Positions 4,569 to 61,681 of a stretch of 64,000 nucleotides of DNA are shown in pieces (positions within the stretch are counted from its first letter, which is position 1; each line of letters opens with the position of its first letter). The translations under genes and the position numbers were made by a program. The DNA comes from a virus. The notes below the pieces were generated by a model, which did no database searches, was not told where the DNA came from, and saw only the letters and a program-made list of their open reading frames with translations. The stretch is from the IMG/VR virus record IMGVR_UViG_3300025018_000111, positions 32,001 to 96,000 of that record. The stretch is one strand, 5' to 3'.

Positions 4569-6542
4569 ATGAGCAGAAGTAAAACTTCAATTCCAAAAGA
4601 TTTAGAGGATTTAGAGAAAAGGAGAGGTAGGGTCCAATCAATATCACCTCTTTCTACAGAATTGTTCTCCAAATCTTCCTATGAATCGGACGCTTCCTCT
4701 AGCTCCTCATTCACCGATACGAATTACAGACGAAATTCCAGCTCTACTATTCGTAGGACCGATGCCTATAGAAATATTGAAGACGGGATGATTCCTCAGA
4801 CCGGATCTTCGTATATGGGTGGAACTTCAAGCGACAGCCCTTATACTATTCACGACGCCATAGAATTATGCCAGAAAAGCTATTATAATATTCCTGTTTG
4901 TAAGAATATCATTGATTTGATGGCGGAATTCAGTTCTACAGATATTTACTTCAAGGGCGGAACTAAAAAATCCAAGACATTTTTTGAAGAGTATTTTAAG
5001 TCAATTAACATTCACAAACTCCAAGACGAATTCTTTTTGGAATATTATAGATCGGGCAATGTTTTTCTCTATATCCATGAAGGATATATTTCGGATGAAA
5101 ACATGAGGAGATTGAAAAAGAATTTTGGACTCATTTTATCTGCCCTCGGATCTAAAATCCCTGTTAAATTTGAAATTCTAGATCCATCGTGCGTCCAGTC
5201 CGATGGCAATATAAGTTTTGCTAACAACTATTACAAAAAAGCCATATCTGGGTACGAGTTATCTCGATTAAAAAATCCAAAAACGGATCAGGACAAAATG
5301 GTCTTAGATTCTATGCCGAAAGACGTGCGGGATCAGATTACGAGACAAAAAGACGATATTCAATCTAATAATCATACGGTTTTCATCGATTTATCTGAAG
5401 ACAAAATTATTGCCATTTTCAATAAAAAAATGCCATACGAACCTTTTGCTGTTCCAATGTGTTGGCCAGTATTAAGAGATATAAATGCGAAAGAGGAGTT
5501 AAAAAAGATTGACATGGCGATAGCAAGAACCTCTCAACAGATGGTATTGCTTCTCACAATGGGCACAGAACTCAAGGATGGGACTGTTACTACCAATATG
5601 GAGTACATGAACAAAATGAGAGATTTGTTCAAAAATCAAAGTGTGAACAAGGTTCTTGTATCTGATTATACTACTAGAGCAGAATTCATAACGCCAAGAA
5701 TCGAAGATTTATTAACAGGTGAAAAGTACAAGATATTGAATGAAGATATTGCCAACGGACTGAATTCTATCCTAGCGGGTGGTGAAAAATTCAGCAATCA
5801 GAGTATCAAAGTTAAAGTATTTCTTGAGAGGTTGAAGCAAGGGAGAGAGGTTTTCAAAAGGGAATTTCTTATTCCTCAAATTAAGAATATTAGTAATAAA
5901 CTCGGTTTCAGAAAGTATCCAGAGCCTTATTTCCAAGAGGTTGATTTTAAGGATGAAATACAAATGAACCGAGTTTATACTCGACTTATAGAACTAGGGG
6001 TATTAACGGCGGATGACGGAATCAAGGCTATTCAAACTGGAGAGCTTCCAACTCCAGAGGAAAATCTAGAATCTCAAAAACTATTCAAAGACCAGAAAGA
6101 TGAAGGATTGTTTGACCCTCTTATCGGAGGAAAGAACAAAAGTGAAGGAGGAAGACCTTCTGGAACTTCTAGTCCTAAAACATCCGCTCCGATGACCGCA
6201 AATGAGGATAAAATATCAATTTCTAGGTTGAAAGAGACATATAAGATAGCATCAGAGGTTTACAAATCAATCGCCGAAGAGATTAGAGAAACTAACAATC
6301 TGACAAGACTCGGAAAAAAACAAAAGCAGATAGTAAGAGAATTGACCGACAATCTTATCATAAACGAAGGATTAGATAGTTGGAGAACAAAAGTTTCTTC
6401 ATATTGTTCGGGAAATTTCTCAGCGAAAACGTCGGCGGAAAGATTGGAATTGCTACACGAAGCGATGAAAGATTATGACGTTGATTATGTGGATGCGGCA
6501 CTGATTCTTGAAGTTAAGAAAGATCTAATGAATCATGAGTAA
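4569..6542 (+). CDS. Portal protein
   Basis: Follows terL; 657 aa; YYNIPVCKNIIDLMAEF and EYYRSGNVF segments typical of portals; C-terminal GGRP motif. Confidence 0.75.
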   Translation: MSRSKTSIPKDLEDLEKRRGRVQSISPLSTELFSKSSYESDASSSSSFTDTNYRRNSSSTIRRTDAYRNIEDGMIPQTGSSYMGGTSSDSPYTIHDAIELCQKSYYNIPVCKNIIDLMAEFSSTDIYFKGGTKKSKTFFEEYFKSINIHKLQDEFFLEYYRSGNVFLYIHEGYISDENMRRLKKNFGLILSALGSKIPVKFEILDPSCVQSDGNISFANNYYKKAISGYELSRLKNPKTDQDKMVLDSMPKDVRDQITRQKDDIQSNNHTVFIDLSEDKIIAIFNKKMPYEPFAVPMCWPVLRDINAKEELKKIDMAIARTSQQMVLLLTMGTELKDGTVTTNMEYMNKMRDLFKNQSVNKVLVSDYTTRAEFITPRIEDLLTGEKYKILNEDIANGLNSILAGGEKFSNQSIKVKVFLERLKQGREVFKREFLIPQIKNISNKLGFRKYPEPYFQEVDFKDEIQMNRVYTRLIELGVLTADDGIKAIQTGELPTPEENLESQKLFKDQKDEGLFDPLIGGKNKSEGGRPSGTSSPKTSAPMTANEDKISISRLKETYKIASEVYKSIAEEIRETNNLTRLGKKQKQIVRELTDNLIINEGLDSWRTKVSSYCSGNFSAKTSAERLELLHEAMKDYDVDYVDAALILEVKKDLMNHE

Positions 6543-7884
6543 CAACCTCTATCCCAATAGACAGAGCATATTCGTTGGTCCGGCTCCTAGTAGCGGATAC
6601 AATTTCTCTCTTTATAGTGATGGAAGCGGGAATGAAAATGATTCTGGAGATTATTTGTATTCTAATCATAATCTCTTGCAACCCATAGAACACGCTAGTT
6701 CTTTCTCTTGGGGGATCAATGATACTCGAACCGAGATCAAGCAATTATCTACCAAAGGAGCGTATGACAGAGTTTTCATTCAAAAACCGGTTGGCACTCT
6801 GGAGTTTTCTTACTTCAACAATGGGTTGAAAAACGATTGCAGAATTGGACTAGAGGCGAATTATGAAAGATGGGATTATCCCAATTCTGGTGTATTGTTA
6901 TATGGAGAATCTGGGATTTCCCCAATATCGGGATTTGATACCAATCTGTCAGAATTAAGAAGTTTCGATCCATTTCTTCCCAATCAGTATCGAGATAAAA
7001 GAAACATATTCTTTGTCAACAATTCTTTGAACAGAGATATTCTAAAATATAATTATACAGGAGACGATCATTCAATAAGAAATCTTATAGATACTAATTA
7101 TGCGAATTACGATGTTATCGGATTCGGTAACTGTTATTTAAACACTTATTCTACCTCCTGTTCCGTTGGGAGTTTAGTTCAATCTAGCGCATCCTTTTTG
7201 TTTGAAAACGTAGTGGGGTATGATAAGGGATCGGGCTACAATGCCCCAAGTTTAGATCCTGAGACTTATTCGTCTAATGGGAAAAGGTTCGCGATACCTC
7301 CAGTTTACAATTATCCAAATATGCTTCCTGTTACTCCAGACGATATTCAATCTACTATCACTTTGAATGATATTGGTGTAAATTTTGAGGATTTAAGTGT
7401 TCAAAGCTACAACATAACGATGGAGTTGAATCGTTTAAATCTTGAATCCATTGGGTATGATTTACCTTTGGATAGAAAATTAAACTATCCAATTTATTGC
7501 GAATTATCAATGGATGCGATTGTCCATGATTTTGCTACGGGGGAATTGAAATCATTTGCTACGGATAATTCTGATTATGATCTGAACATCAGACTCTATA
7601 ACCCAACACCTAGTAACGAGATGGATATTTCAATTCGATACGATTTTAGGAAAGCAAAGTTGTTGAATTACAGATACAGTAATAGTTTTGGAAATTCAAT
7701 GAGTGTTAATTTTTCATTTTCCGTTGAAGTAGATCCGTCTGATCTAACAAAAGGTTTTTTCATTAGCGGACAATTCAATGAACACCAAGACGAAAGACAA
7801 GATTATCTATTGGATGAAAATATTGATTTTTTGGTAGATGAGAATGGAGATAAGTTGATTACAAATTACAAACCGATCTATTAG
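6535..7884 (+). CDS. Tail-tube-like structural protein (paralog 1)
   Basis: Shares FVGPxPSSG, FGNCY..YS...VGS and VQSY....NR....G...DR...YP with 20132-21781 and 24000-25199. Confidence 0.55.
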   Translation: MSNNLYPNRQSIFVGPAPSSGYNFSLYSDGSGNENDSGDYLYSNHNLLQPIEHASSFSWGINDTRTEIKQLSTKGAYDRVFIQKPVGTLEFSYFNNGLKNDCRIGLEANYERWDYPNSGVLLYGESGISPISGFDTNLSELRSFDPFLPNQYRDKRNIFFVNNSLNRDILKYNYTGDDHSIRNLIDTNYANYDVIGFGNCYLNTYSTSCSVGSLVQSSASFLFENVVGYDKGSGYNAPSLDPETYSSNGKRFAIPPVYNYPNMLPVTPDDIQSTITLNDIGVNFEDLSVQSYNITMELNRLNLESIGYDLPLDRKLNYPIYCELSMDAIVHDFATGELKSFATDNSDYDLNIRLYNPTPSNEMDISIRYDFRKAKLLNYRYSNSFGNSMSVNFSFSVEVDPSDLTKGFFISGQFNEHQDERQDYLLDENIDFLVDENGDKLITNYKPIY

Positions 7885-7896
7885 AATTTAAAAAAT

Positions 7897-9003
7897 ATGG
7901 CAAACAAAGTTTTAGGGCAATATACTCTATTATCGGATTTACCTTCCGATAGCTTATTTTACACTGTTGTAAGTGGCGTCACTTATAAGACTACTATAGG
8001 TGCAATCCAAAGCGGATTTAGTCCATCAACATTAATATCTCTCTCTGATACCCCCTCATCATATGCAACGACATCTTCCCGATCCGATCCTAGTAAGTAT
8101 TATTTTTTAAGCGTAAATTCTCCCAATACAGCAACAGAGTTTGCTCAAGTCAGATTCACAGATCTAAATGAAACGCCAAGTTCTCTTTTAGGAAGCTCTT
8201 CTGACAGTTATGGTCAAAAATTCTTCGGGGTATCTCAAGGGGCATCTACGATTACCGCAGAATATGCGAAATTCACTGGACTAAACGATGTCCCTCACTC
8301 TTATTCTGCCTCCTCTTTGTATTTAGTTAGGGTGAATGCAGGTGAAACGGCTCTGGAATTTGTGGACCCAAGTTCTATTATTCCTAATACTACGGGATTT
8401 TTGCAATTAAATGATACTCCAAGCTCTTACATAGGTCAAGCTGGAAATTATCTCAGAGTAGATTCTTCCGAAACGGGCGTGGAATTTACTTCGGTAGCCC
8501 CTTCATCCTCTAGCATCTGCGGAGAGACGATTCCTATAAAAATTCCAGCATCAAGTTCAGCCGTCGAACAAGATTCATTCCCAGAAACTTTGATAAGACT
8601 TCAGTCTAATGATGGAGACCACTTCGTCTATTCGTCATGGATGAAACCTACGGGATTTGACAGTGGGAAGGATATAACCATTGATATATGTTTCTTTGGA
8701 GTAGAACACTCCTCTACAGAACCTCGTTATTATTACAATTTGTTTTGTGTTACGGGAACCACTGGAACGAACCCCTCGTCGTTCGATAAATCACTCGACG
8801 CCCCACTCCTTACCGATTATGTAGATATGACCGATATAGCGACACAAAAGCTAGTGAGGAAAAGGCACACCTTTTCAGCATTACTAAGCGATGATGTCGC
8901 GGCATTATATTTTTGCCTACAGAGAACTAACGGAACAAGTGGCGCCGAAAATTTATCGGGAATATTTTTAAATAGAATTGGATTGACATATCACCAAAAT
9001 TAG
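7897..9003 (+). CDS. Fibre/whisker-like virion protein with repeats
   Basis: Four LxDTPSSY-type repeats, three of them followed by (L)xVxxxxT(A/G)xEF; Ser/Thr-rich. Confidence 0.55.
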   Translation: MANKVLGQYTLLSDLPSDSLFYTVVSGVTYKTTIGAIQSGFSPSTLISLSDTPSSYATTSSRSDPSKYYFLSVNSPNTATEFAQVRFTDLNETPSSLLGSSSDSYGQKFFGVSQGASTITAEYAKFTGLNDVPHSYSASSLYLVRVNAGETALEFVDPSSIIPNTTGFLQLNDTPSSYIGQAGNYLRVDSSETGVEFTSVAPSSSSICGETIPIKIPASSSAVEQDSFPETLIRLQSNDGDHFVYSSWMKPTGFDSGKDITIDICFFGVEHSSTEPRYYYNLFCVTGTTGTNPSSFDKSLDAPLLTDYVDMTDIATQKLVRKRHTFSALLSDDVAALYFCLQRTNGTSGAENLSGIFLNRIGLTYHQN

Positions 9004-9110: not shown

Positions 9111-11057
9111 ATGAGCATATTTGACGAACAAGTTAGTAGGAAACCGGATTTATATCCTTGGACAGAACAATTTTTAGAAGCAGCGCAAAGCAATTTATGG
9201 ACTCATAGGGAATTTACATTTCAATCCGATGTTCAGGATTTTAAAGTGAATATGACCAAGGATGAGCGGGATATGATCATAAGATCGTTATCTTGCATTG
9301 GTCAACTAGAAATCAGTGTTAAAAAATTCTGGGCTAAACTTGGGGACAATCTTCCTCACCCGTCTCTCTATGACCTTGGGTATATGTTTGCATATCAGGA
9401 ATGTTATTCAGCTGATACCGAAGTTTTAACCCCAAATGGATGGAGATATTTATCATCAATGAAGAAAGGGGACGAGGTCTATCAATTCAACCCAGAAACT
9501 TGTGGATTATCTGAGACTATAGTTAAAGACACTATTTCTAAAAAATATAATGGCAAAATGTATGAATTTGGAGAAAAAAGCAATAACTGTTTTGTGACTC
9601 CGAATCATGATATGGTAATTCAGAGGCAGAAATCCGATGGATGGAAGGTTAGTAAGGTTGCGGCCAAAGATTTGAAATTCCATTCAGCTATAAAAATACC
9701 GAAGACGACGTTTATCGAGAACAACAAGGATAACAGTCTTACAAATGAAGAAAGAATTTATATAGCCATTCAAGCGGATGGCACAATATCTTATAGATAT
9801 GGGAAGGATGGAGAAAAAATCTTGCGAGGAGTTTCTGAAAACTCTGAATATTCTTATGTAATAGATTTGTACGAAGATCGCAAAAAAAATAGAATGGATT
9901 ATTTGCTTGAAAATTCCAGTATAAAATATACCACCGGATATTCAAAGTGTGGAAAACGCAAGATATATTACCTACATATCAGTGGAGATGAAAATTATAA
10001 GGAATTTGATTGGATAGATTTGAAATCAAAATCAAAAAGATGGTGCAAAGAATTCGTAGAAGAGCTATGGAATTGGGATGGATCTCTTGAGAGAAAATCT
10101 TATTACAGTAAACATAAAAAAAATGCAGATTTTTGTCAGCATGTGGGAATACTGGCGGGATATCGTACAATTGTAAGTCCCTTTGCTGATAATAGGGGCA
10201 CGAGGGACAAAACAAAATTCGTAACATCTTTTTCAGAACTCGATCATAGATGGAGATATATTATTCAAATGAAAAAGAAGGAAATAGATTACAACTCTAC
10301 GGTTCATTGCATCACTGTTGAAAGTGGAGCCATCGTAACCAGAAGGAAGGGGAGGCCATTCATCGCTGGAAATTGCGTTCATGGGTCTGCTTACGAACGC
10401 CTTTTAGAGGTATTAGGTATTGAAGAGGCGTTTGATCGGGCTTTGGAAATGCCAATCCTGAAGGGAAGAGTAAATTATTTGAAAAAATATTTACACAAAT
10501 TCCATTCTGACAATAGAAAGCAGTTTGTTTACTCTATTATCCTTTTTACAATTTTCGTAGAGAATATTGCTCTGTTTTCTCAGTTTTATACTTGCATGTG
10601 GTTTAGAAAATACAAGAATTTCTTAAAAGATACTGAGAAGCAAACTAATTACACGTCGAATGAGGAGAATATTCATCACGAAGCGGGATGTAAAATAATA
10701 TCTGAAATTAGAAAAGAACTTCCTGAACTATTTGATTCTGAATTGGAGGATAGAATAATTGAAGAATCTAAGAACGCAGTTGAATATGAGATGAAAATTA
10801 TCGAATGGATTCTTGGAGATTTTCAGCATGAGTATTTAAACAAAGAGCTTCTTTGTAATTTTATCAAAAATCGCCTTAACAGATCTTTAATCATGATTGG
10901 CTATAAACCTGTTTTTGATATAGATGTAGAATTGTTAAAAAAAACAAATTGGTTTGACGAACAACTTAACGGAAACAATCAGCAAGACTTCTTTGATAAT
11001 CGAAGCATTGAATATGTTAAAAATGCACAATCATTTGACGAAGAATCATTATTTTAA
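9111..11057 (+). CDS. nrdB: Class I ribonucleotide reductase beta subunit with intein
   Basis: WTHREF, di-iron E|CVH and EENIH, ENIALFSQF, C-terminal DFF...EY. Removing the intein leaves 324 aa. Confidence 0.92.
   Translation: MSIFDEQVSRKPDLYPWTEQFLEAAQSNLWTHREFTFQSDVQDFKVNMTKDERDMIIRSLSCIGQLEISVKKFWAKLGDNLPHPSLYDLGYMFAYQECYSADTEVLTPNGWRYLSSMKKGDEVYQFNPETCGLSETIVKDTISKKYNGKMYEFGEKSNNCFVTPNHDMVIQRQKSDGWKVSKVAAKDLKFHSAIKIPKTTFIENNKDNSLTNEERIYIAIQADGTISYRYGKDGEKILRGVSENSEYSYVIDLYEDRKKNRMDYLLENSSIKYTTGYSKCGKRKIYYLHISGDENYKEFDWIDLKSKSKRWCKEFVEELWNWDGSLERKSYYSKHKKNADFCQHVGILAGYRTIVSPFADNRGTRDKTKFVTSFSELDHRWRYIIQMKKKEIDYNSTVHCITVESGAIVTRRKGRPFIAGNCVHGSAYERLLEVLGIEEAFDRALEMPILKGRVNYLKKYLHKFHSDNRKQFVYSIILFTIFVENIALFSQFYTCMWFRKYKNFLKDTEKQTNYTSNEENIHHEAGCKIISEIRKELPELFDSELEDRIIEESKNAVEYEMKIIEWILGDFQHEYLNKELLCNFIKNRLNRSLIMIGYKPVFDIDVELLKKTNWFDEQLNGNNQQDFFDNRSIEYVKNAQSFDEESLF
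9402..10373 (+). mobile_element. 324-aa intein with LAGLIDADG homing endonuclease in nrdB
   Basis: Starts CYSADTEVLT; block B VTPNH; LAGLIDADG-like IYIAIQADG and LWNWDGS; ends VHCITV...IAGN|C. Confidence 0.9.
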
Positions 11058-11064
11058 AAAAGAA

Positions 11065-13128
11065 ATGAAATACGATAATTTTTACTGGCTAAACGAAGAC
11101 TCTAGAACATTTTTATCTAGGGGTTATTTGAAAGAGGGGGAATTGGCGGAAGATCGTCTTCGTGAAATAAGCGAAGCGTCTGAATCTATTTTAAAAGAAA
11201 AAGGATTCGCGGATAAATTTTACGATTACGTATCTCGCGGTTTTTACTCATTATCAACTCCTGTTCTCTGTAATTTTGGAAAACCTAATAATACAGGAGT
11301 TTCTTGTTTTTCTAGCTATATTCCAGACTCTACGGATGAAATTCTGAGAAAAGTAGGAGAGGTCGGGATCATGTCCAAGTGGGGAGGTGGAACATCTGGA
11401 TATTTTGGAGATGTTAGACCGAGAGGATCTAAAATCGTGAGAGGAGGAGGGGAAACGGACGGTCCAGTAAGGTTTATGGAATTGTTTGACAAAGTTGCGG
11501 ATGTAGTTAGCCAATCAAGTAGCCGGAGAGGATCTTTTGCAGCATATCTCCCTGTTGAGCATCCTGATATTTTGGAATTTTTACAGATCAGAAGTGATGG
11601 TCATATTATTCAAAACATGAGTATCGGAGTAACTATTTCTGACGACTGGATGGAAAAGATGTTGAGTGGGGATAAGGATAAGAGAAAAATATGGGGACTT
11701 ATTATTCGGAAAAGGTTTGAGACTGGATATCCTTATATCGTATATACTGATACAACTAATAAAAACGCCCCACAGTGGTACAAAGATCAGGGGATGAAGA
11801 TCCTGAACTCAAACCTGTGCGTTGCTCCAGAAACTATGGTGACTACATCTGACGGTTCGTTTGAAATCCAAGAACTAAAGGATAGAGAAGTTAAAGTTTG
11901 GAACGGAGAAGAATGGTCGACGGTTATTATTAGAAAAACGGGATCTAATCAGAGGCTGATAAAATTAACCTTTCGAGATGAAAATGGAGCTGAAAATTCT
12001 ATTTGGACGACAGAGCATCATAAGTTTTATATTGAAGATGGGAGCGAAATAAGAGCAAAAGATTTAGTTGTTGGAGATAAATTAGAGAAATTCGATAACC
12101 ATAGCTCTATTAATAAGCAATATATTCTTTTAAATATATCGGATTTACAGAGGGTTGATGATACTTACTGCGCGACCGAACCGAAAAGGAATAGGATTCA
12201 ATTTAATGGAATTTTGACTGGGAACTGTTCTGAAATATTTCTCCCAACTAACGAAAAAGAATCTTTCGTTTGTGTCCTTTCTTGTTTGAACCTTCTTCAT
12301 TGGGATGAAATAAAAAAAACAGATGCTCCAGAAACTTTGCTTAAATTCCTATGGACGGTTAACGAAGAGTTCGTAAGAAAGACAGACGGGGTTCCTTTTA
12401 TGGAAGATGCGAATAGGTTTGCAAAAAGACATCGGGCTATCGGATTAGGAGTTTTAGGCTGGCACTCTCTTCTTCAGAGCAAAATGATCCCGTTTGAATC
12501 TATGGAAGCGAAGTTTTTGAATAATGAGATTTTCAAAGAGATCAGATTGAGAATGGATTCTACTAACAAGGAATTGGTCAAAACAATCGGAGAATCTGAA
12601 GTAACTAAGGGATATGGAGTTGCACTGTCAACGACTATGAGTTTGCCTCCTACAACGAGCAGTTCCTTTATATTAGGTCAAGTATCTCAAAGTATTGAAC
12701 CTTTGAATAGTAATTATTTCGTGAAAAGATTGGCAAAAGGGAATTTTACATATAAAAATCCAGAATTCTTAGAGTTACTAGAAAAGAAGGGGAAGAACAA
12801 TGAGGGGACTTGGAACTCGATATTAGTCAAAGGAGGATCTGTCCAGCATTTAGATTTTTTATCTGAACATGAAAAAAATGTCTTTAAAACTTTTGGAGAA
12901 ATATCTCAGAAGGAAATTATTATTCAGGCAGCACAGCGTCAACCGTACATAGACCAAGGACAAAGTTTGAATATAACAGTTGGTCCAAAGATTCCTGCCA
13001 AAGAGGTTAGTGATCTTATGATTGAGGCATGGAAGCTCGGTGTCAAATCCTTATATTATCAAAGAGGTGCAAATCCATCTCAAGAGTTAGCGAGAAGTTT
13101 AAACCAATGCGTTTCCTGCGAAGGGTAG
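11065..13128 (+). CDS. nrdA: Class I ribonucleotide reductase alpha subunit (no ATP cone) with mini-intein
   Basis: STPV, SCF, GGGTS, RRG, NL|CSE, LGVLG, PTTSSS, KSLYY and C-terminal CVSCEG. ATG 11065 follows the nrdB stop. Confidence 0.92.
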   Translation: MKYDNFYWLNEDSRTFLSRGYLKEGELAEDRLREISEASESILKEKGFADKFYDYVSRGFYSLSTPVLCNFGKPNNTGVSCFSSYIPDSTDEILRKVGEVGIMSKWGGGTSGYFGDVRPRGSKIVRGGGETDGPVRFMELFDKVADVVSQSSSRRGSFAAYLPVEHPDILEFLQIRSDGHIIQNMSIGVTISDDWMEKMLSGDKDKRKIWGLIIRKRFETGYPYIVYTDTTNKNAPQWYKDQGMKILNSNLCVAPETMVTTSDGSFEIQELKDREVKVWNGEEWSTVIIRKTGSNQRLIKLTFRDENGAENSIWTTEHHKFYIEDGSEIRAKDLVVGDKLEKFDNHSSINKQYILLNISDLQRVDDTYCATEPKRNRIQFNGILTGNCSEIFLPTNEKESFVCVLSCLNLLHWDEIKKTDAPETLLKFLWTVNEEFVRKTDGVPFMEDANRFAKRHRAIGLGVLGWHSLLQSKMIPFESMEAKFLNNEIFKEIRLRMDSTNKELVKTIGESEVTKGYGVALSTTMSLPPTTSSSFILGQVSQSIEPLNSNYFVKRLAKGNFTYKNPEFLELLEKKGKNNEGTWNSILVKGGSVQHLDFLSEHEKNVFKTFGEISQKEIIIQAAQRQPYIDQGQSLNITVGPKIPAKEVSDLMIEAWKLGVKSLYYQRGANPSQELARSLNQCVSCEG
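11818..12225 (+). mobile_element. 136-aa mini-intein in nrdA
   Basis: CVAPETMV...TTEHHKF...TYC...GILTGN|CSE; no endonuclease domain. Confidence 0.9.
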
Positions 13129-31153: not shown

Positions 31154-32090
31154 AAAGATTTTCTCTGAGATTTTGTTTGGATATTCCTCGTGTAACTACA
31201 AAGACCGAAAATTTAAAATAAGACATCTAACTCCAAAAGAAGATATGGAGTTAGATTTTTATTATCAGTGTGTAGAGGACGAGGCGGAGGAGAAAGGATA
31301 CCCAACAGAAGAGGAGAAAGTTGAGGAATTGATTTCGGTCGGCTCTTGGTCTAAAGAAAAAGACGAGGAAATTAAAAGGGATCAAGAACATCTAAAAGGA
31401 ATCATCAAAACTAAGGAAAAATTGTTCCAAAAAAGAATGATTGAGGAATTGGAAAAGAGTGAGGAAAAGGTCAAAAAGAAAATCCAAGATCTTCAGCTTG
31501 AAAGATATAATTTATTGTATCCTACAAGAGAGGACTATATTAACAAAAGAATAAACGACTATTATATTTTCTTATCATTAGTAGATTATGATGGGAGCCA
31601 GATTTTTGAGTCATTTTCAGAATTTGACGAAGAAGATGATGATGTAATTATCAATTATAGAGACCTGTTTTTAGACGTTTATAGAAGGATCAGCTATGAT
31701 AATATTAAGAAAATATCCGTATCTCAATTTTTTCTAGAACTTTTCATTTGTTGCGGTGACAATCCGATGACTTTTTACGGAGAAAGCGTGAAAAATCTCA
31801 CTAATTTCCAAGTCTTGTTATTCAACACGGGTAAAAAATACAAAGATTTGATCCAGAATAGCGATTCAGAAATTCCTCAAGAGTATTTTGAAGATCCCGA
31901 CAAGTTAATCGCCTTTGTTAATAAGTCCAAAAATGAACAAGAGGCAGAATCTAAAAACAAATTTGATAACAGAGGAATTATGGACGATGGATTAGACTCT
32001 GAATTTAATAAAAAGATGAGAGAAAAAGCCAAAGCGAACGGGGGTCAACTCGGAATGGAAGAGTTGATGAAAATGCACTCTGGATTCTAG
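31128..32090 (+). CDS. Putative tail assembly chaperone 2
   Basis: Overlaps chaperone 1 and directly precedes the tape measure. Confidence 0.5.
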   Translation: MNKKTANLKKIFSEILFGYSSCNYKDRKFKIRHLTPKEDMELDFYYQCVEDEAEEKGYPTEEEKVEELISVGSWSKEKDEEIKRDQEHLKGIIKTKEKLFQKRMIEELEKSEEKVKKKIQDLQLERYNLLYPTREDYINKRINDYYIFLSLVDYDGSQIFESFSEFDEEDDDVIINYRDLFLDVYRRISYDNIKKISVSQFFLELFICCGDNPMTFYGESVKNLTNFQVLLFNTGKKYKDLIQNSDSEIPQEYFEDPDKLIAFVNKSKNEQEAESKNKFDNRGIMDDGLDSEFNKKMREKAKANGGQLGMEELMKMHSGF

Positions 32091-55553: not shown

Positions 55554-56717
55554 TTACTTTACTTGACTTGTTTTTGTCAACACTTTATTTGGAATAATTC
55601 CGATATTCTCACAGAACATCGATGTTCTTTCTTTATTCGGAGATCCTTTGACCACAACTATGTCACCTTTATCTGGAAGTTTCCCATTGTTGGTTTCGCA
55701 ATTGGATATTTCGTCCTCTCCAACCAACATAATAGTGAAAGTTCCAAAATCATCGGCGACCTTATATCGTAGATACTTATTGTCTCTTTTTGAAATTCCT
55801 ATGAATGGCTTCTCAACGATTTCGCATCCGAGTCTGATTTTCTCACCATTCCCGAATTTCGCTTTCTTGATTTCTGGTATATTATAGACAGATTGATATT
55901 TTTTTTCAAGAATTTTCTTCAAAGTATTTGAGAAAGAATATCCGAGATAGTGTCTCTCAAAATACCAATTAGAATATCCCTCGTGCTTAGAATTGATTTC
56001 CATCATCTTCTTATACTTAAAAGTATTCTTCCTGATCGTGTCCATTCTACTGGGAGCAACTAGAGGTTTTCCGTTATCCCCTATCTTTTGGGAAATCTTT
56101 TCTAGGGCAATATCTATCCTTTCGTCAATATTGTATTGAATCAGAAGGTTTTTTTCCTTTGTGAGTTTATTCCAATATTGAATCTCAAAAGAAAATTCAT
56201 TCCTAGATTTGATGAAATCATCAAAAAATCCACATCTGGTTAAACTTATGAGAGTGGTGACATCTAGTTTTGCCTCGTTCGCATTCAGAAGAATCTCATA
56301 TTTGGAGTCAAAGTTTTCTAAAAGTTTATCTAGTTTTTGTTTCTTTTCTTGTTTGATTCCACGAACGCAAGCAATTCCATGACGGATATTTTTGTCCTCA
56401 AGTGAAAAATCAATCTGACTTTTCCCAATGCAAGGAGGAAGCAATTCTATATTTTCCCCGACCATTTCTCTTTGGATGCTTCCAACTTCGGACTGTTGTT
56501 CTCCTTTGTTATTGGTCATTTTTAGATTCCCAAGAAAAAACTGAGTTGGGAACTTGTATTTTAAATAGATGGTGATTGCGGTAAGAGCGGAATAAGCGAT
56601 ACTGTGACTGTTGCTCGCCACCAATCCGTTCGCCAACACAAAATTGTGACAAGGATTATCTACCTCTATATCAATAAGATCCCTCTCTTCGAGTTCTGTG
56701 GATTTAATGATTCTCAT
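55554..56717 (-). CDS. dnaE: DNA polymerase III alpha, C-terminal part with N-terminal split-intein IntC
   Basis: After IntC: SHSIAYS...YLKYKFP..F, LLPP.I.KS...F, I.HGI..VRGI HhH, E..YLGYS and an OB fold. Confidence 0.92.
   Translation of the reverse strand: MRIIKSTELEERDLIDIEVDNPCHNFVLANGLVASNSHSIAYSALTAITIYLKYKFPTQFFLGNLKMTNNKGEQQSEVGSIQREMVGENIELLPPCIGKSQIDFSLEDKNIRHGIACVRGIKQEKKQKLDKLLENFDSKYEILLNANEAKLDVTTLISLTRCGFFDDFIKSRNEFSFEIQYWNKLTKEKNLLIQYNIDERIDIALEKISQKIGDNGKPLVAPSRMDTIRKNTFKYKKMMEINSKHEGYSNWYFERHYLGYSFSNTLKKILEKKYQSVYNIPEIKKAKFGNGEKIRLGCEIVEKPFIGISKRDNKYLRYKVADDFGTFTIMLVGEDEISNCETNNGKLPDKGDIVVVKGSPNKERTSMFCENIGIIPNKVLTKTSQVK
56610..56717 (-). mobile_element. Split intein C-fragment (36 aa)
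   Basis: MRIIKSTELEERDLIDIEVDNPCHNFVLANGLVASN|S, blocks F and G only. Confidence 0.92.
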
Positions 56718-57816
56718 TTTTGACTTTCTTCCATATCCATATTGGTTCACCAAATTTTCCAGCTTTATCAGATTTACTATTTGGCCTTTTCCCCATTTCC
56801 AATCCCCAACAACCTTGATACTCGGAATTTTCCAAAGTGTCAATGAATTTGTTCATCGGATCGCAAATTTTATTTATCCGATGATGACAATAAACATCAC
56901 TAATATTGATAGCGAGAGTTCCATTTTCGTCTAAACTATCCCAACTATTTTTAATACTTCTGAAAAGAAAATTTTCCAACCATTCTTCAAAAACCTTATA
57001 TTTTACCCAACTCTGAGATTCGTCATAACTGTATCTTTCAATATCGTAATAAGGGGGAGACGTAAAAATAAAATCAAAATTTTGACTGTACTTATATTCT
57101 TCAGCCTGACCGACATTCATGTTGACAAACTTTGATCCGTTATCAAAAATCTGAATCTGCTTATTGTAACCGTCAACTAGTTTTTCATTGGGATCTAATC
57201 CAAAATAAGAAACCCCAGTGTTTGAAGCTAAAAATCCACTCAGCCTATCCCCCCAACCAGAGGAAAAGTCAAGAATTTTCTTAGCCTCAAAATGATCGTA
57301 CAAGACTTTCGCCACAGATGGTCTAAATTGGCTCGCAATGTACTTTCTAAGCGATATTAGAGTCCTGATAGTATCAGAGTTAAGGGACATAATTTTAAGA
57401 GTCCACAAACCGTTTAAAAGAGTATTTAAAAACTTCGCATTATTCCAAACTCTTTCGGGACTCGGACTGTTGATAGAATTTGTTTTCCACCGATTATATT
57501 GGTGAAAATAATTGCTTGATTTATTCCCAACGTTGAGAGATTTTAAAAGAATGTCCTTTCTCTCAAATTCATAATCATACCGAGTGTTCCATTTTGATTC
57601 GATTAAAACATCAGATACTTTTACTCTGGTTAATTTGTCAAAATCTTCTTTTGCATCTTGCTCGGTTATTTTGAGATAAGGAAGAGGAGGATCTTTCATC
57701 ATTATCTCCTCTATTATTCTGTGCTTAATATCTCCTTTAGAGAATCTTTCGTTTATTTGTTTCCAGTCTCGTTCTGATACGTTGAACTCTCCGTTTTTTA
57801 TAAATTCCCTAAGCAT
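56704..57816 (-). CDS. DNA amino-methyltransferase (m4C/m6A type)
   Basis: Motif I LDFSSGWG, then motif IV FTSPPYY, and EPIWIW. Confidence 0.85.
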   Translation of the reverse strand: MLREFIKNGEFNVSERDWKQINERFSKGDIKHRIIEEIMMKDPPLPYLKITEQDAKEDFDKLTRVKVSDVLIESKWNTRYDYEFERKDILLKSLNVGNKSSNYFHQYNRWKTNSINSPSPERVWNNAKFLNTLLNGLWTLKIMSLNSDTIRTLISLRKYIASQFRPSVAKVLYDHFEAKKILDFSSGWGDRLSGFLASNTGVSYFGLDPNEKLVDGYNKQIQIFDNGSKFVNMNVGQAEEYKYSQNFDFIFTSPPYYDIERYSYDESQSWVKYKVFEEWLENFLFRSIKNSWDSLDENGTLAINISDVYCHHRINKICDPMNKFIDTLENSEYQGCWGLEMGKRPNSKSDKAGKFGEPIWIWKKVKNENH

Positions 57817-58460
57817 TCGATATAGTCGTTTGATTTATTTAAAGATTCAACAGAATTTATCTCTTTAAAATGTTTTTCTGTCAATTCAAAAGGATTCAGA
57901 TATTTGTACTTCAAATTAGCAGAATTGCATCTTACTTCCATCCTGTTCCATCCATCAGTTTTCCCCTTTTTGAGACATTTTATATTTTCATGAGAAAAAT
58001 ATTCGTCTTTTCCTATCCAGCCAATTAGCCACGCTTTTTTGAAATCCTTATGGACTCTCATAAAAACATATTTGTCGCAATCCATTCCTTTAGAATAAAA
58101 AGGTACGCTGGCATCAAATGCTTCTGATTTTCCCACGATTGGATCAACATCCACCCCTTGAGTCTTAGTTTTAACATCATAATTTACTTTTCCATTTTTA
58201 CTAATAAAATCATAATCATATACAACATTCCCAACATATTTTAGTTTATTCCTGAATATTTGAAAAAATAAATATTCACCTAAGATTCCAGATGAATTCC
58301 TATTTCCCTCCATAAAGGATCTATTATTGAGCTTCCCCATCGATTCGGCAATTTCGCGCAATCGATCAATCGTACTTGGAATATCGAAGTTTAATTCATA
58401 ACATCCTGAATCTAACTTACTTATACATATTTCCCCATCTTGAACTTTTAATCTAAACAT
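57798..58460 (-). CDS. PD-(D/E)xK-type nuclease
   Basis: GILGE (helix Glu), YDYDF (Asp), YDVKTK (D-x-K), AWLIGWI. ATG 58460 overlaps the dnaE-N stop. Confidence 0.6.
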   Translation of the reverse strand: MFRLKVQDGEICISKLDSGCYELNFDIPSTIDRLREIAESMGKLNNRSFMEGNRNSSGILGEYLFFQIFRNKLKYVGNVVYDYDFISKNGKVNYDVKTKTQGVDVDPIVGKSEAFDASVPFYSKGMDCDKYVFMRVHKDFKKAWLIGWIGKDEYFSHENIKCLKKGKTDGWNRMEVRCNSANLKYKYLNPFELTEKHFKEINSVESLNKSNDYIECLGNL

Positions 58461-60708
58461 ATTTAAAGTCACATTGGAAATCATCTAACGATTTAATCGG
58501 AATCATTCTCCCACTCCTTTGCTCCATAAATTTGTGAGATTTGGACGAAACTACTTTCGCTCCAGAGTCAAATTTGTATTCGACTGCCGGTTTGTTAGAA
58601 CGATAAGTTTGAGTAACAGTAGATTCTACAATTTCATCAATCTCGAAATCGTAACTATAAACTTTATCCCCGATATTCAAATCACCGATTCTTTTGCTCC
58701 CATAAGGAGTTTCAACCTCTGTGTCTGGATCTAAGCACTTGTTAAAACTATAGCTCGCGGAATCGTGCAATAATTTCCAGTAAATCTCAAAAACTTCTGG
58801 ATCATAACCCCTCTCCTCCCCAGCTTTTCTAAGAACCGGCTCGAACTTGTCAATAATTTCCTTTTTCTTCTTACCGACTCCTCTTCGGATTTGCTCTCCA
58901 TCTTCTAAAGATAATCCGAAAACTTTACTGGCAATTCTCATCAGTTGCTCCTGATATATAAGCATGTTGCCACTTTCTTTTAAGTAAGGATCAAGGACTG
59001 GGTGAAGAGAGGGCGGAGTTCCTGAAGCTGTGTATTTGCTGTAGGGTTCGATGAATTGCAAAGCGCCCGGTCTCGCGATAGCCAACACCGCACTCAAATC
59101 CTCAATATTCCTCGGTTTAATAGCCCTAGTAGTCTTATACGCAGTATCTTCGCTAATTTGGAACAATCCGTACCTAGAATCCAAATCCTGACAAATCTGA
59201 TAGATATAAGGATCTTCAATATCAATATCGTCAATATCTAATCCCACAATCTTACAAACCTCATCAACAACACTAAGAGTTTTCACCCCTAGTAGGTCTA
59301 GTTTAATGGTTAAAAGTTCTACCACGTTCTTATTATAAGAACTCACAAGATTCCCCTCTTTCGTCAATTCTACTGGAAGAGTTTTATCTAAAGAGTGTTT
59401 GCTTACAATGATTCCGCTCGCATGAACTCCTTTGTTTCTAGGGAGTCCATTCAATTTTTGAGCAACCTTAAATGCCCTCTCATTTTCCTTACACCAGTTA
59501 TCGAACTTTTGACTTTTAGCTCTCGTATCTTCCAGAGAATCAACATTCCCGAATTGAGATTCAATGAAACTCGAAATCTTCGTCATTTCTTGATCACTTT
59601 TAGCAGCAACGATCTTTCCACACTCTTTTATCAGGATTTTACTGGTAAGAGTATTAACATTTAGAATATGACAAACTTTTCCTTTATATTTTTCGGAAAC
59701 ATAATTGATAACCTCTGGTCGTCGATAATAATCAATGTCAATATCAACGTCACACATTAAAGATCCGTCAAGATATGTGATTCCATCTATGACTGTTTTT
59801 TTGGCTCTTGCTCTGCTGACAAATCTCTCGAAGTAAAGTTCATATCGAATAGGATCAATCTTTGTAACATTGATTAGGAATAAGATTAACGATCCGCAAG
59901 CCGAATTGTGAACAGTATAATTTTCAGTCGAATAAGAGGGGGAATCACCGCTCATTGTTAGATCATAAACTTTTTTATATTTATTTTTAACAATTTCGGT
60001 CGATTGGACGATTTGAAAACTAGGATAATATTCTATGCCGTCATATCTGACTAGAACATCCCCAATTTTAATATTCTCAGATTTTACCCATTTCGTTTCT
60101 GGAATACTTGGGTAATCACTATCATAAATATAAGAATCATCAACAATGAGAACCTCGTGGTCTTTTGTTAATGAAACGGATTCATCTTTAACTTCTAAAA
60201 GATTTATCTTAACCAAATCTTCATCGCAATCGTATTCGTGTTTAGCCCTAACATTGCTCCACTTACCGAATCCATTCAGGATAATGTCTCCTTTTTGAAT
60301 GTCTTTGATATATTTTAATCCATCTTTAGTTCTGATTTTAGAATACGGATGAAGACATCCCCTTCCGTGACCAAGCAATATCCCTTTTTCTCTACAAAAA
60401 TTGCAAACATCCCAAATCAAAAGAAAATAATCGGTGAAAGACAATTCTTCAATAAGATCCAATTCGTAATCAAGTCTGTCTTGATATTCTTTCTTTTTTG
60501 ATTCCGGTTTATCTGAGATATATTCTCTAAGAGAATTATCACAAAGAGATTTTAAAAAATCAAAGTTTTTGAAGTTTTTTGGAAGATTATATTTTTCTAC
60601 ATACTTTCGATCAATTTCAATTTCAGGGAGTTCTACCCCTTTACTGGTTTTATCCAAAGAGGAAAACTGTTTTAGAAACTCTTTTTCAGTAAAATTTTTA
60701 ATATCCAT
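58453..60708 (-). CDS. dnaE: DNA polymerase III alpha, catalytic N-part (no PHP) with cis mini-intein and terminal split-intein IntN
   Basis: RLDYEL, DYFL, GRG|SACGS, LYFERF, DVDID, HASG, KLDLLG, GLFQ, RPG, IYQEQ, YSFNK|C. ATG 60708. Confidence 0.95.
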   Translation of the reverse strand: MDIKNFTEKEFLKQFSSLDKTSKGVELPEIEIDRKYVEKYNLPKNFKNFDFLKSLCDNSLREYISDKPESKKKEYQDRLDYELDLIEELSFTDYFLLIWDVCNFCREKGILLGHGRGCLHPYSKIRTKDGLKYIKDIQKGDIILNGFGKWSNVRAKHEYDCDEDLVKINLLEVKDESVSLTKDHEVLIVDDSYIYDSDYPSIPETKWVKSENIKIGDVLVRYDGIEYYPSFQIVQSTEIVKNKYKKVYDLTMSGDSPSYSTENYTVHNSACGSLILFLINVTKIDPIRYELYFERFVSRARAKKTVIDGITYLDGSLMCDVDIDIDYYRRPEVINYVSEKYKGKVCHILNVNTLTSKILIKECGKIVAAKSDQEMTKISSFIESQFGNVDSLEDTRAKSQKFDNWCKENERAFKVAQKLNGLPRNKGVHASGIIVSKHSLDKTLPVELTKEGNLVSSYNKNVVELLTIKLDLLGVKTLSVVDEVCKIVGLDIDDIDIEDPYIYQICQDLDSRYGLFQISEDTAYKTTRAIKPRNIEDLSAVLAIARPGALQFIEPYSKYTASGTPPSLHPVLDPYLKESGNMLIYQEQLMRIASKVFGLSLEDGEQIRRGVGKKKKEIIDKFEPVLRKAGEERGYDPEVFEIYWKLLHDSASYSFNKCLDPDTEVETPYGSKRIGDLNIGDKVYSYDFEIDEIVESTVTQTYRSNKPAVEYKFDSGAKVVSSKSHKFMEQRSGRMIPIKSLDDFQCDFKYV
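58456..58737 (-). mobile_element. Split intein N-fragment (94 aa)
   Basis: CLDPDTEVETPYG...I.DL.IGDKVYS...SSKSHKF, then a stop; blocks A and B only. Confidence 0.92.
59905..60357 (-). mobile_element. 151-aa cis mini-intein in dnaE-N
   Basis: GRG|CLHPYSKI...LTKDHEV...VYDLT...TVHN|SACGS. Confidence 0.92.
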
Positions 60709-61009
60709 TTTTTTTATATTCGTCTTCGTCTTCGTCGTCGTCATCACCTTCATCTACCGTATATCCCAATTCTTCCAGATCAATATCGTTTTCCTCGGCA
60801 ACCTCAAACAACTTTTCACTAATGACTTCTATCGATGCTATGAATGTTTTAAGAGCGTCATTATCACTTCTGTCTATCTTCACAAAAGATTCTATACAAG
60901 CCCTATCATTTTCATCTTCTGTCGCAGTGTTAGTCGGAATCAAGAGAATATAATCTTGTTTGTTCTTATCCAATCCGTCTAATAGGTCATAAATAAAATC
61001 TTTAGTCAT
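60698..61009 (-). CDS. Small very acidic protein
   Basis: 103 aa ending DEGDDDDEDEDEYKKNGY; preceded by GTGTAT at 61018-61023 on the minus strand. Confidence 0.6.
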   Translation of the reverse strand: MTKDFIYDLLDGLDKNKQDYILLIPTNTATEDENDRACIESFVKIDRSDNDALKTFIASIEVISEKLFEVAEENDIDLEELGYTVDEGDDDDEDEDEYKKNGY

Positions 61010-61024
61010 AAAAAAGAATACACT

Positions 61025-61681
61025 TTAGAGCTTTGCCTCATGCTTAAGATGATTCCAGATCTTCCAATTCAATCTAATATCATCCAGTGCGTCGTGAAGC
61101 TTTTCGGAGTCATATTCTATGTTAAAATGTTTTGCCAAATATTCCAAGTTAGACTTCACTCCTCTGACTCTTGTGTTTTTAACTCGATATTGATATTCGA
61201 GGAATGTTTCGTTCTCTGGATTAAACTTCATTCCATAAAAAATTCCTCTAGCAATACAGTTCGTGTCGATTGCTTTGTCGGGAAGGTGTCTCCATTCCTT
61301 CCCATACATCCGATAACACTCTTTTAAGAGAGGTAAGTCAAATCCGAGTATGTTGTGTCCCATGATATAATCACAGTCCTCTATGACAGGATAAATGAGA
61401 TTGAACACCTCTTCGCTAGGTCTTGCGAGTCTCATCACCTCCTCATGATTGTATTTAGTGACATAAGCAGCCCCTTTTCCTATTCTCAGATCAGAGTCCC
61501 ATTTCAGGTAATAATCTTTTTCATCAACGAGTTTGTCTCCAACGAAAGATAGGTAGGCAAATTGCCAGAAACGATTGCAGTGAAAACTCAGATTGAGTGA
61601 AAATGTTTCCTCGTCAAAAACACAAATTTTTGCATTATTATCGAATCTTAGGTTCTGCATAATATTATTTCCCCTCTTCAA
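61025..61681 (-). CDS. DEDDh 3'-5' exonuclease (DnaQ/epsilon-like)
   Basis: ExoI FDEET, ExoII GHNILGFD, ExoIII LHDALDD. Confidence 0.88.
   Translation of the reverse strand: MKRGNNIMQNLRFDNNAKICVFDEETFSLNLSFHCNRFWQFAYLSFVGDKLVDEKDYYLKWDSDLRIGKGAAYVTKYNHEEVMRLARPSEEVFNLIYPVIEDCDYIMGHNILGFDLPLLKECYRMYGKEWRHLPDKAIDTNCIARGIFYGMKFNPENETFLEYQYRVKNTRVRGVKSNLEYLAKHFNIEYDSEKLHDALDDIRLNWKIWNHLKHEAKL

Follow-up and report, generated by a model that had tools for sequence, protein, structure and literature searches.

How a phage obtains a working DNA polymerase from a gene that lies in several pieces is the question raised by a locus of the IMG/VR virus record IMGVR_UViG_3300025018_000111 (113,940 bases), of which positions 32,001 to 96,000 were analysed; this stretch of 64,000 nucleotides (nt), with a GC content of ∼35%, is referred to below as the window, and all positions are those of the window unless another locus is named. 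On its minus strand, between 55554 and 62595, the map of open reading frames (ORFs) combined with Pfam and PHROG matches revealed a DnaE-type polymerase in pieces (Table 1). Since no other DnaE, PolA or PolB was detected across the 114-kb record, which is estimated to be 68% complete, the dnaE locus must give a working enzyme. Judged from its sequence, the locus is a natural split intein with all the residues required for splicing, and not a chance arrangement. Fractured genes, including phage-like dnaE genes with split inteins at non-cyanobacterial sites and an endonuclease gene between the two halves, were described in 2009 (PMC2677866); the fractured dnaE arrangement itself is thus already known, and the window intein is a new member of it.

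The N-terminal (IntN) and C-terminal (IntC) halves of the intein are encoded by separate ORFs of the same strand, namely DnaE(N)-IntN of ∼751 amino acids (aa), which includes an additional mini-intein, and IntC-DnaE(C) of 387 aa, with a gap of 1.7 kb between them. IntN starts with Cys1 (CLDPDTEV...) at 58737, immediately after the N-extein terminus ...SYSFNK, while IntC terminates with ...HNFVLANGLVASN (VASN) and is followed by SHSIAYS of the C-extein. Hence the locus shows the features by which a class 1 HINT domain is recognised: Cys1 after FNK, the block B S-x-x-H, the terminal Asn and Ser+1. In addition, block B of the window intein, S-K-S-H-K-F, aligns with T-K-D-H-K-F of Npu and the cyanobacterial inteins. 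In the phage DnaE profile phrog_405 the two exteins adjoin at position 793, and the predicted product of splicing at FNK/SHS (the slash marks the splice junction here and below) is a DnaE core of 857 aa, in agreement with uninterrupted homologs of ∼503+352 aa. In an alignment with contiguous mini-inteins located at the same site, the break was found to fall within their linker, between the N- and C-terminal splicing motifs.

Table 1. Pieces of the dnaE gene of the window and the genes lying between them, with the matches or observations on which each assignment is based.
Feature	Positions	Strand	Basis and remarks
DnaE PHP domain ORF, 247 aa	61852..62595	-	Pfam PHP 3.8e-5; phrog_405 profile 62-291
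DnaQ-like 3'-5' exonuclease ORF, between PHP ORF and DnaE core	61025..61681	-	Pfam RNase_T 5.3e-8
DnaE core, N-extein part a	60358..60708	-	Probable start ATG 60708 (MDIKNF...); upstream ATG 60753 also open
Contiguous mini-intein, 151 aa (GHGRG/CLHPY...TKDH...TVHN/SACGS)	59905..60357	-	Pfam PT-HINT matches
DnaE core, N-extein part b (polymerase NTPase and finger domains), end ...SYSFNK	58738..59904	-	Pfam DNA_pol3_alpha 9e-56, DNA_pol3_finger 4.5e-29; phrog_405 up to profile 793
IntN, 94 aa, Cys1, block B S-K-S-H-K-F, basic distal part	58456..58737	-	Stop 58455-58453
Predicted PD-(D/E)xK nuclease, free-standing, 228 aa from first ATG	57798..58484	-	Homolog alignment and AlphaFold2 fold
DNA methyltransferase, 370 aa	56704..57816	-	Motif I FSSGWGD, motif IV SPPY; phrog_498
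IntC, 36 aa (MRIIKSTELEERDLIDIEVDNPCHNFVLANGLVASN), acidic, terminal Asn, penultimate Ser	56610..56717	-	ATG 56717; sequence and alignments
DnaE C-extein, 351 aa and stop, from Ser+1 (SHSIAYS...); HHH_6 and C-terminal OB-like part	55554..56609	-	Pfam HHH_6 2.4e-11; phrog_405 from 793; homologs P0001-P0008

The alignment of the junction with cyanobacterial DnaE-C (ASN/CFNKSHS, compared with ASN/SHS in the window) places the insertion site four residues downstream of the cyanobacterial EY/CFN site, and the +1 nucleophile of the window corresponds to the conserved Ser of the FNKSHS motif. The penultimate residue of IntC is Ser instead of His, and the final 13 residues of this half are identical to those of a cyanobacterial protein (P0009). 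A preliminary description of this DNA, made from the sequence alone, had placed the start of IntN at 58737 and the end of IntC at 56610, and had reported a 36-aa IntC devoid of a penultimate His as well as a Ser+1 site shifted by four residues; the coordinates proved exact and the remaining points were confirmed by the alignments. Compared with inteins of solved structure, IntN matched DnaE (Npu and consensus) and gp41-1 inteins with E-values of 6e-5 to 1e-3, and the best matches of IntC were likewise gp41-1 and Npu. A near-identical, already catalogued split intein was sought among solved structures (best E-value ∼1e-4) and in the literature searched and was not found. The claim that the split intein is new consequently stands for the sequence itself but not for its kind, as fractured dnaE genes (PMC2677866) and the acidic IntC of gp41-1 had been reported before.

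A profile scan of IMG/VR yielded 71 related phage loci, among which the site is most commonly empty, the sequence YSFNK-SHS being uninterrupted in >55 phage contigs. Contiguous mini-inteins occupy the same site in L069, L070, L074 and L075, and split inteins are found there with either a NUMOD3 and Vsr-like ORF (L004, L044) or a free-standing LAGLIDADG gene (L067, L073) in the gap. Such a set of empty, contiguous and split forms is the evolutionary series expected for an intein that was split by an endonuclease. No close relative was recovered in the exact-peptide IMG/VR scan with the C fragment, and a metagenome scan returned only distant same-site inteins. The window clade is known solely as database proteins, of which the C fragments P0001-P0004 share 91, 74, 69 and 67% amino acid sequence identity with that of the window, whereas the N fragments P0018-P0024 share the junction ...KLLHDSASYSFNK/CLDP...; the same pair of N and C fragments was encountered in three or more lineages, with identities of 60-91%. 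The first mini-intein is present in some and missing from other near-identical N fragments of this clade (768 aa in P0018 and P0190, compared with 602 aa in P0019 and 617 aa in P0189), and relatives with and without it have identical IntN. This variation represents a population polymorphism and, as far as these proteins tell, points to a recent gain or loss.

Several of the related loci show peculiarities of their own. Two of the contiguous same-site mini-inteins start with Ser (L070, 7128-9131, FNK/SITLDT...; L074, 784-2754, FNK/SVCPYT...), which makes them candidate cysteine-free N-terminal nucleophile inteins. In L067 the LAGLIDADG endonuclease gene of the gap is located at 7100-8008, and the DnaE fragment at 5820-7103 gives two IntN-like matches (6306-6506 and 6834-7034), so that it may hold an extra upstream intein. 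For one relative of the window, two shorter proteins encoded on a single 9538-nt contig, P0178 with 160 aa and P0183 with 241 aa, were called in place of one IntC-DnaE(C); a frameshift or a faulty assembly may be the cause, or the fragment may be broken once more.

The nuclease and methyltransferase genes of the gap fall inside the interval 56610-58737 and were not mentioned in the preliminary description. The 228-aa ORF had no match in sequence searches against Pfam, PHROGs, NCBIfam and solved structures. However, 507 representative homologs were recovered, mostly viral and of 160-180 aa, and their alignment revealed conserved E70, D92, (D/E)103-x-K105 and K107, i.e. the PD-(D/E)xK signature. 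The AlphaFold2 model of the protein (predicted local distance difference test score, pLDDT, 91) has additional N-terminal strands and C-terminal helices relative to the homing endonuclease I-Ssp6803I, and its fold matches comprise NhoI (Z 8.4), DpnI (Z 7.0), the viral nuclease D212 (Z 7.0), I-Ssp6803I (Z 6.9) and the Hjc resolvase (Z 6.0). Although modest, these Z values suffice to establish the fold of the modelled protein, though not its specificity. Vsr is not among the fold matches listed for the window nuclease, and the motif of the latter (E..D..(D/E)xK) differs from the D..FWH..D of the Vsr-like gap ORFs of L004 and L044; the list of matches nevertheless leaves room for a Vsr-like type. 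The likely start of the nuclease is Met9 at 58460, the ATG of which overlaps the IntN stop codon (ATGTTTAG); an ortholog with 85% identity, P0025, also begins at Met9.

The second gene of the gap encodes a DNA methyltransferase according to phrog_498, and matches Pfam N6_N4_Mtase with an E-value of 1.3e-5, which is below the cut-off. Its structural neighbours in the Atlas are N6_N4/N4-cytosine methylases (template modelling score, TM, 0.88-0.93), and its 2302 homologs, most of them with PF01555, form a very large phage family. A predicted restriction-fold nuclease adjoins a DNA methyltransferase with both S-adenosylmethionine-binding and catalytic motifs, an arrangement that is one of the marks of a Type II restriction-modification system. 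The nuclease and methylase ORFs overlap by 19 nt, and the methylase and IntC ORFs by 14 nt. No terminator-like sites were found within the cassette, and a scan for consensus promoters and terminators remained at background level; because stop and start codons overlap and no internal terminator-like site intervenes, the four ORFs are probably co-transcribed. The database lists an ortholog of the nuclease with 85% identity, and orthologs of the methylase with 88, 72 and 68%, on contigs equal in size to those carrying the dnaE fragments of the respective lineages (170847, 157984, 30257, 9138, 5780, 19396 and 5470 nt). Judged from these equal sizes, and not from the DNA of the contigs, the nuclease-methylase cassette has very probably been kept in the gap throughout the window clade.

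The locus can be compared with four known systems. With the fractured genes of Dassa it shares a phage-like DNA-metabolism gene that is broken at an intein within one locus and on one strand, a free-standing endonuclease gene that separates IntN from IntC and has overlapping ends, and a non-cyanobacterial site. One of the three metagenomic dnaE loci reported there (DnaE-1, -2 and -3), DnaE-1, also has an additional in-frame upstream intein (PMC2677866), as is the case in the window. According to their description, however, the gap genes of those loci are GIY-YIG or Vsr-like, apparently unlike the predicted PD-(D/E)xK nuclease and the methyltransferase of the window; no published description of the latter two as cargo of an intein gap was found, and this cargo is a new feature in comparison with the known fractured genes. 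The cyanobacterial DnaE inteins (Ssp and Npu; PDB 4LX3, 4KL5, 2KEQ, 7QIL) reside in the same region of the same host protein, and have Cys1, an xxHKFM block B, a 36-aa IntC that ends with ASN and lacks a penultimate His, and a split at the endonuclease-insertion loop; the identity of the concatenated window intein to five of them (loci L078-L162) amounts to 31-36%. They differ from it in the site (EY/CFN compared with FNK/SHS), in the +1 residue (Cys compared with Ser), in the distant location of their halves, which are adjacent in the window, and in charge.

In the case of gp41-1 (PDB 6QAZ), the similarities include a phage-type metagenomic origin, Cys1, Ser+1, a charge polarity opposite to that of Npu and, in the alignment, an acidic start of IntC (...ELEERDLIDIEV in the window, ...ELDERELIDIEV in gp41-1). 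This intein, however, resides in a helicase gene, has a different gap gene and an HN end instead of the SN of the window, and the match to its IntN has an E-value of just ∼1e-3 across 78 residues. I-Ssp6803I (PDB 2OST) resembles the window nuclease as a small PD-(D/E)xK enzyme of a mobile element, with its Z value of 6.9 extending across 110 residues, but its gene resides in a group I intron within a tRNA gene and its sequence similarity to the window protein is undetectable.

The charges of the two halves were compared over the 24 residues of IntN that precede the block-B His and the 12 residues of IntC that precede the DIEV motif. It is in these segments that the structure paper on gp41-1 (bioRxiv 10.1101/546465) places the charge zipper, namely in β3 (C-terminal end of IntN) and β6 (start of IntC). 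The IntN and IntC segments of the window carry charges of +3 and -2, respectively. In the sister lineage, the halves of which were paired via equal-sized contigs, the corresponding values are 0 and 0 to -1, and in further members of the window clade they are -1 to -7 and +3 to +5. For other phage split inteins at this site the values are -1 to -5 and +3 to +5, and for cyanobacterial DnaE inteins -1 to -3 and 0 to +2. As the sequences indicate, the reversed polarity of the window is derived and has arisen recently within a single family of alleles, via a neutral intermediate, and this stepwise inversion from Npu-like through neutral to reversed is a new feature. The fact that the charges of the two halves co-vary argues for selection on the interaction between IntN and IntC.

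The preliminary description had likewise pointed to a charge polarity opposite to that of the cyanobacterial DnaE inteins, which is borne out by the values above, and its count of 7 D/E and 3 K/R for the acidic IntC was reproduced. The distal part of IntN is indeed basic, although its last 47 residues contain 9 K/R and 6 D/E, and the 10 K/R that had been claimed are reached only if Arg46 is included. It had further been proposed that the pair is probably orthogonal to Npu. An acidic IntC with a polarity opposite to that of Npu is documented for gp41-1, and a charge-swapped Npu IntN still spliced with the wild-type Npu IntC (bioRxiv 10.1101/546465). Reversed charges alone therefore do not predict orthogonality, and the charge reversal lends weak support to orthogonality to Npu.

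With regard to the question posed at the outset, the locus is probably a phage fractured dnaE in which the halves of the polymerase are joined by the split intein, the nuclease being most likely the homing-type enzyme responsible for the split and the methylase either its passenger or a shield. The four ORFs would be co-transcribed and, after translation, the mini-intein would splice in cis. IntN and IntC would then associate into one HINT domain, aided by the basic distal part of the former and the acidic start of the latter, and trans-splicing at FNK/SHS via Cys1, the terminal Asn and Ser+1 would release the 857-aa DnaE core, which would act together with the separately encoded PHP protein and the DnaQ-like exonuclease. 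Splicing is very likely active, since no other polymerase was found and the phage depends on this dnaE. The gap in which the nuclease and methyltransferase genes reside corresponds to the position where endonuclease domains of inteins normally sit, and insertion of a homing-type nuclease could have split a once-contiguous intein, as in the Dassa 2009 model; the presence of the homing endonuclease I-Ssp6803I among the PD-(D/E)xK structural neighbours was counted in favour of such a nuclease. The methylase may be a mere passenger, or it may protect the phage's own DNA from the gap nuclease.

Several observations weigh against this interpretation. Splicing, nuclease cleavage and methylation are all deduced from sequence or from models, and the placement of the nuclease and methylase genes in the gap of the relatives relies on matching contig sizes instead of the DNA itself. 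The nuclease family is mostly free-standing, with members of ∼160-180 aa, and even the best of the structural matches have modest scores (Z 7-8.4). A related complete phage has the nuclease outside any fractured gene (L044, 15485-15979), which means that the enzyme need not be a homing enzyme. Finally, among five complete genomes of related phages, one (G008) has only the methylase and another (G009) only the nuclease, both genes being free-standing and the nuclease lying outside any fractured gene, so that the two do not form an obligate pair.

It is highly improbable that dnaE has simply been inactivated by the insertion of a two-gene cassette and that the intein-like ends are non-splicing relics. 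A few members of the C-fragment cluster are indeed short (160 and 241 aa, one 9538-nt contig), but the catalytic residues of the window intein are all intact, the fragments are conserved in many samples and in several lineages, the record gave no sign of an alternative polymerase, and the co-varying charges of the halves imply selection on their interaction. The pseudogene reading was rejected on the basis of the intact residues, the conservation and the lack of another polymerase. A more serious alternative, albeit still an unlikely one, is that the nuclease and methyltransferase constitute a selfish cassette resembling a restriction-modification system, in which the methylase shields the phage while the nuclease cuts unmodified genomes of co-infecting phages or of the host. 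Such a cassette would cause the entire allele, intein and cassette together, to spread or to be retained, instead of promoting classical site-specific homing into an empty dnaE site. The two genes are adjacent, co-directional and overlapping, they combine a restriction-enzyme fold with an SPPY-type methylase, both appear to be conserved with the fractured dnaE in three lineages, and the top structural neighbours of the nuclease are restriction endonucleases. They co-occur, nevertheless, only in the dnaE clade of the window, each being present without the other in the five genomes mentioned above, and an obligate restriction-modification pair was rejected for this reason. Moreover, the methylase comes from a very large phage family (∼50% identity) whose members are usually free-standing, and NhoI, DpnI and Eco15I, the restriction enzymes that match best, are methylation-dependent, the opposite of classical restriction-modification, although the matches are too weak to indicate specificity.

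The origin of the split has to be considered along with the relation of the window intein to its cyanobacterial counterparts. The concatenated intein is 81% identical to that of the sister lineage and 28-31% identical to other same-site phage inteins. In the maximum-likelihood tree, an intein phylogeny having been suggested in the preliminary description, the window clade was recovered with a support of 98/98, the cyanobacterial inteins with 87/89 and the other same-site phage inteins with 64/98, while the tree does not settle the order of these three groups relative to each other. The halves of the window intein are 1.7 kb apart, whereas those of cyanobacteria are separated by megabases (L093 at ∼3.65 Mb and L162 at ∼4.86 Mb on the same chromosome). 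An independent split through endonuclease invasion is plausible and constitutes the simplest reading, because the halves are neighbours separated by a nuclease gene, the site is occupied by contiguous as well as split forms in the relatives, and neither the insertion site nor the +1 residue is that of cyanobacteria. The independent splitting event asserted earlier is accordingly plausible in view of the same-site forms and the gap nuclease, but it is not demonstrated by the tree.

The competing view, that the window intein is a direct offshoot of the already-split cyanobacterial DnaE intein which was transferred between cyanobacteria and phage and slid by four residues, appears rather improbable. 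It would account for the slightly higher identity to the cyanobacterial inteins (31-36%) than to the other same-site phage inteins (28-31%), for the last 13 residues of IntC that match one cyanobacterial IntC, and for the common block B (KSHKFM and KDHKFM), the MIPI/MLPI motif and the 36-aa length of IntC; a sister relationship is also compatible with the tree. The differences in identity, however, lie within the noise at 126 aligned positions. A slide of four residues would require a splicing-deficient intermediate, contiguous phage inteins exist at exactly the site of the window, and the different insertion site and +1 nucleophile, together with halves that are adjacent around a nuclease gene instead of being at distant loci, are hardly expected of such an offshoot. 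An extension of the fractured dnaE model, in which the electrostatic zipper was inverted stepwise, perhaps under selection against mis-pairing with the halves of co-infecting relatives (a natural orthogonality), and in which the split is kept by a methyltransferase-shielded nuclease acting as a self-protected homing cassette, is put forward tentatively and is, as a whole, rather doubtful.

As for the remaining parts of the locus, the mini-intein in the N-terminal portion of the core interrupts the match to Pfam DNA_pol3_alpha (PF07733) exactly between profile positions 65 and 66, and the start at MDIKNF is also that of P0017, a database copy of the DnaE(N) protein of 751 aa. No intein joins the PHP ORF to the polymerase core. 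The layout of the PHP ORF, the DnaQ-like ORF and the DnaE core is kept in L004 (3744-5229) and L044 (3866-5253), which indicates that three or more polypeptides make up the polymerase; the gene order in both loci, i.e. a nuclease-like exonuclease, the PHP ORF, the DnaQ-like exonuclease and the DnaE core, is that of the window. Directly upstream of the DnaE core, and overlapping its start, lies an extremely acidic 103-aa ORF (60698-61009, minus strand) with the run DEGDDDDEDEDE, for which no family match was obtained. When 50,697 phage records were searched with the DNA of the 7-kb locus, no match was obtained, and a protein search of the same set found only distant DnaE proteins of Streptomyces and Saccharomonospora phages, with 26-39% identity over part of the query. 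The window thus represents a phage group without a cultured relative among these 50,697 records.

Additional inteins were observed in the window and in other contigs. An NrdB-like ORF, coding for the small subunit of ribonucleotide reductase (9111-11057, plus strand), harbours an intein of ∼324 aa at 9402-10373 (...FAYQE/CYSADTEV...FIAGN/CVHGS), which was found by its 35% match to the dnaE IntN and whose size suggests an embedded endonuclease domain. The NrdA-like ORF, coding for the large subunit (10954-13128, plus strand), contains a mini-intein of 136 aa at 11818-12225 (...NSNL/CVAPETMV...ILTGN/CSEI). With the two of dnaE, the window accordingly holds at least four inteins, located in replication and nucleotide genes. 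A GC-rich metagenome contig, L076 (530-3334; also L077), encodes a 935-aa ORF with two mini-inteins, the C-terminal parts of which are 67-68% identical to the window IntC across 25-27 residues (...VDIEVDNPDHLFVLANGLIVSN/S).

Protein ligation, segmental labelling and split-gene delivery rely mainly on natural split inteins, and, to our knowledge, fast and mutually orthogonal pairs are in short supply. The window pair combines Cys1 with Ser+1 and retains features related to DnaE-type junction tolerance (the ASN end), and its use as an orthogonal ligation tool is a reasonable but so far unsupported hypothesis. The natural series of close relatives, with interface charges ranging from Npu-like to reversed, could serve to test how far electrostatics set partner specificity. 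The locus provides a full-length example of the fractured dnaE, which was previously available from short metagenomic reads only, and a restriction-fold nuclease accompanied by a methyltransferase, where an intein normally has its endonuclease, would form a bridge between homing elements and restriction-modification systems.

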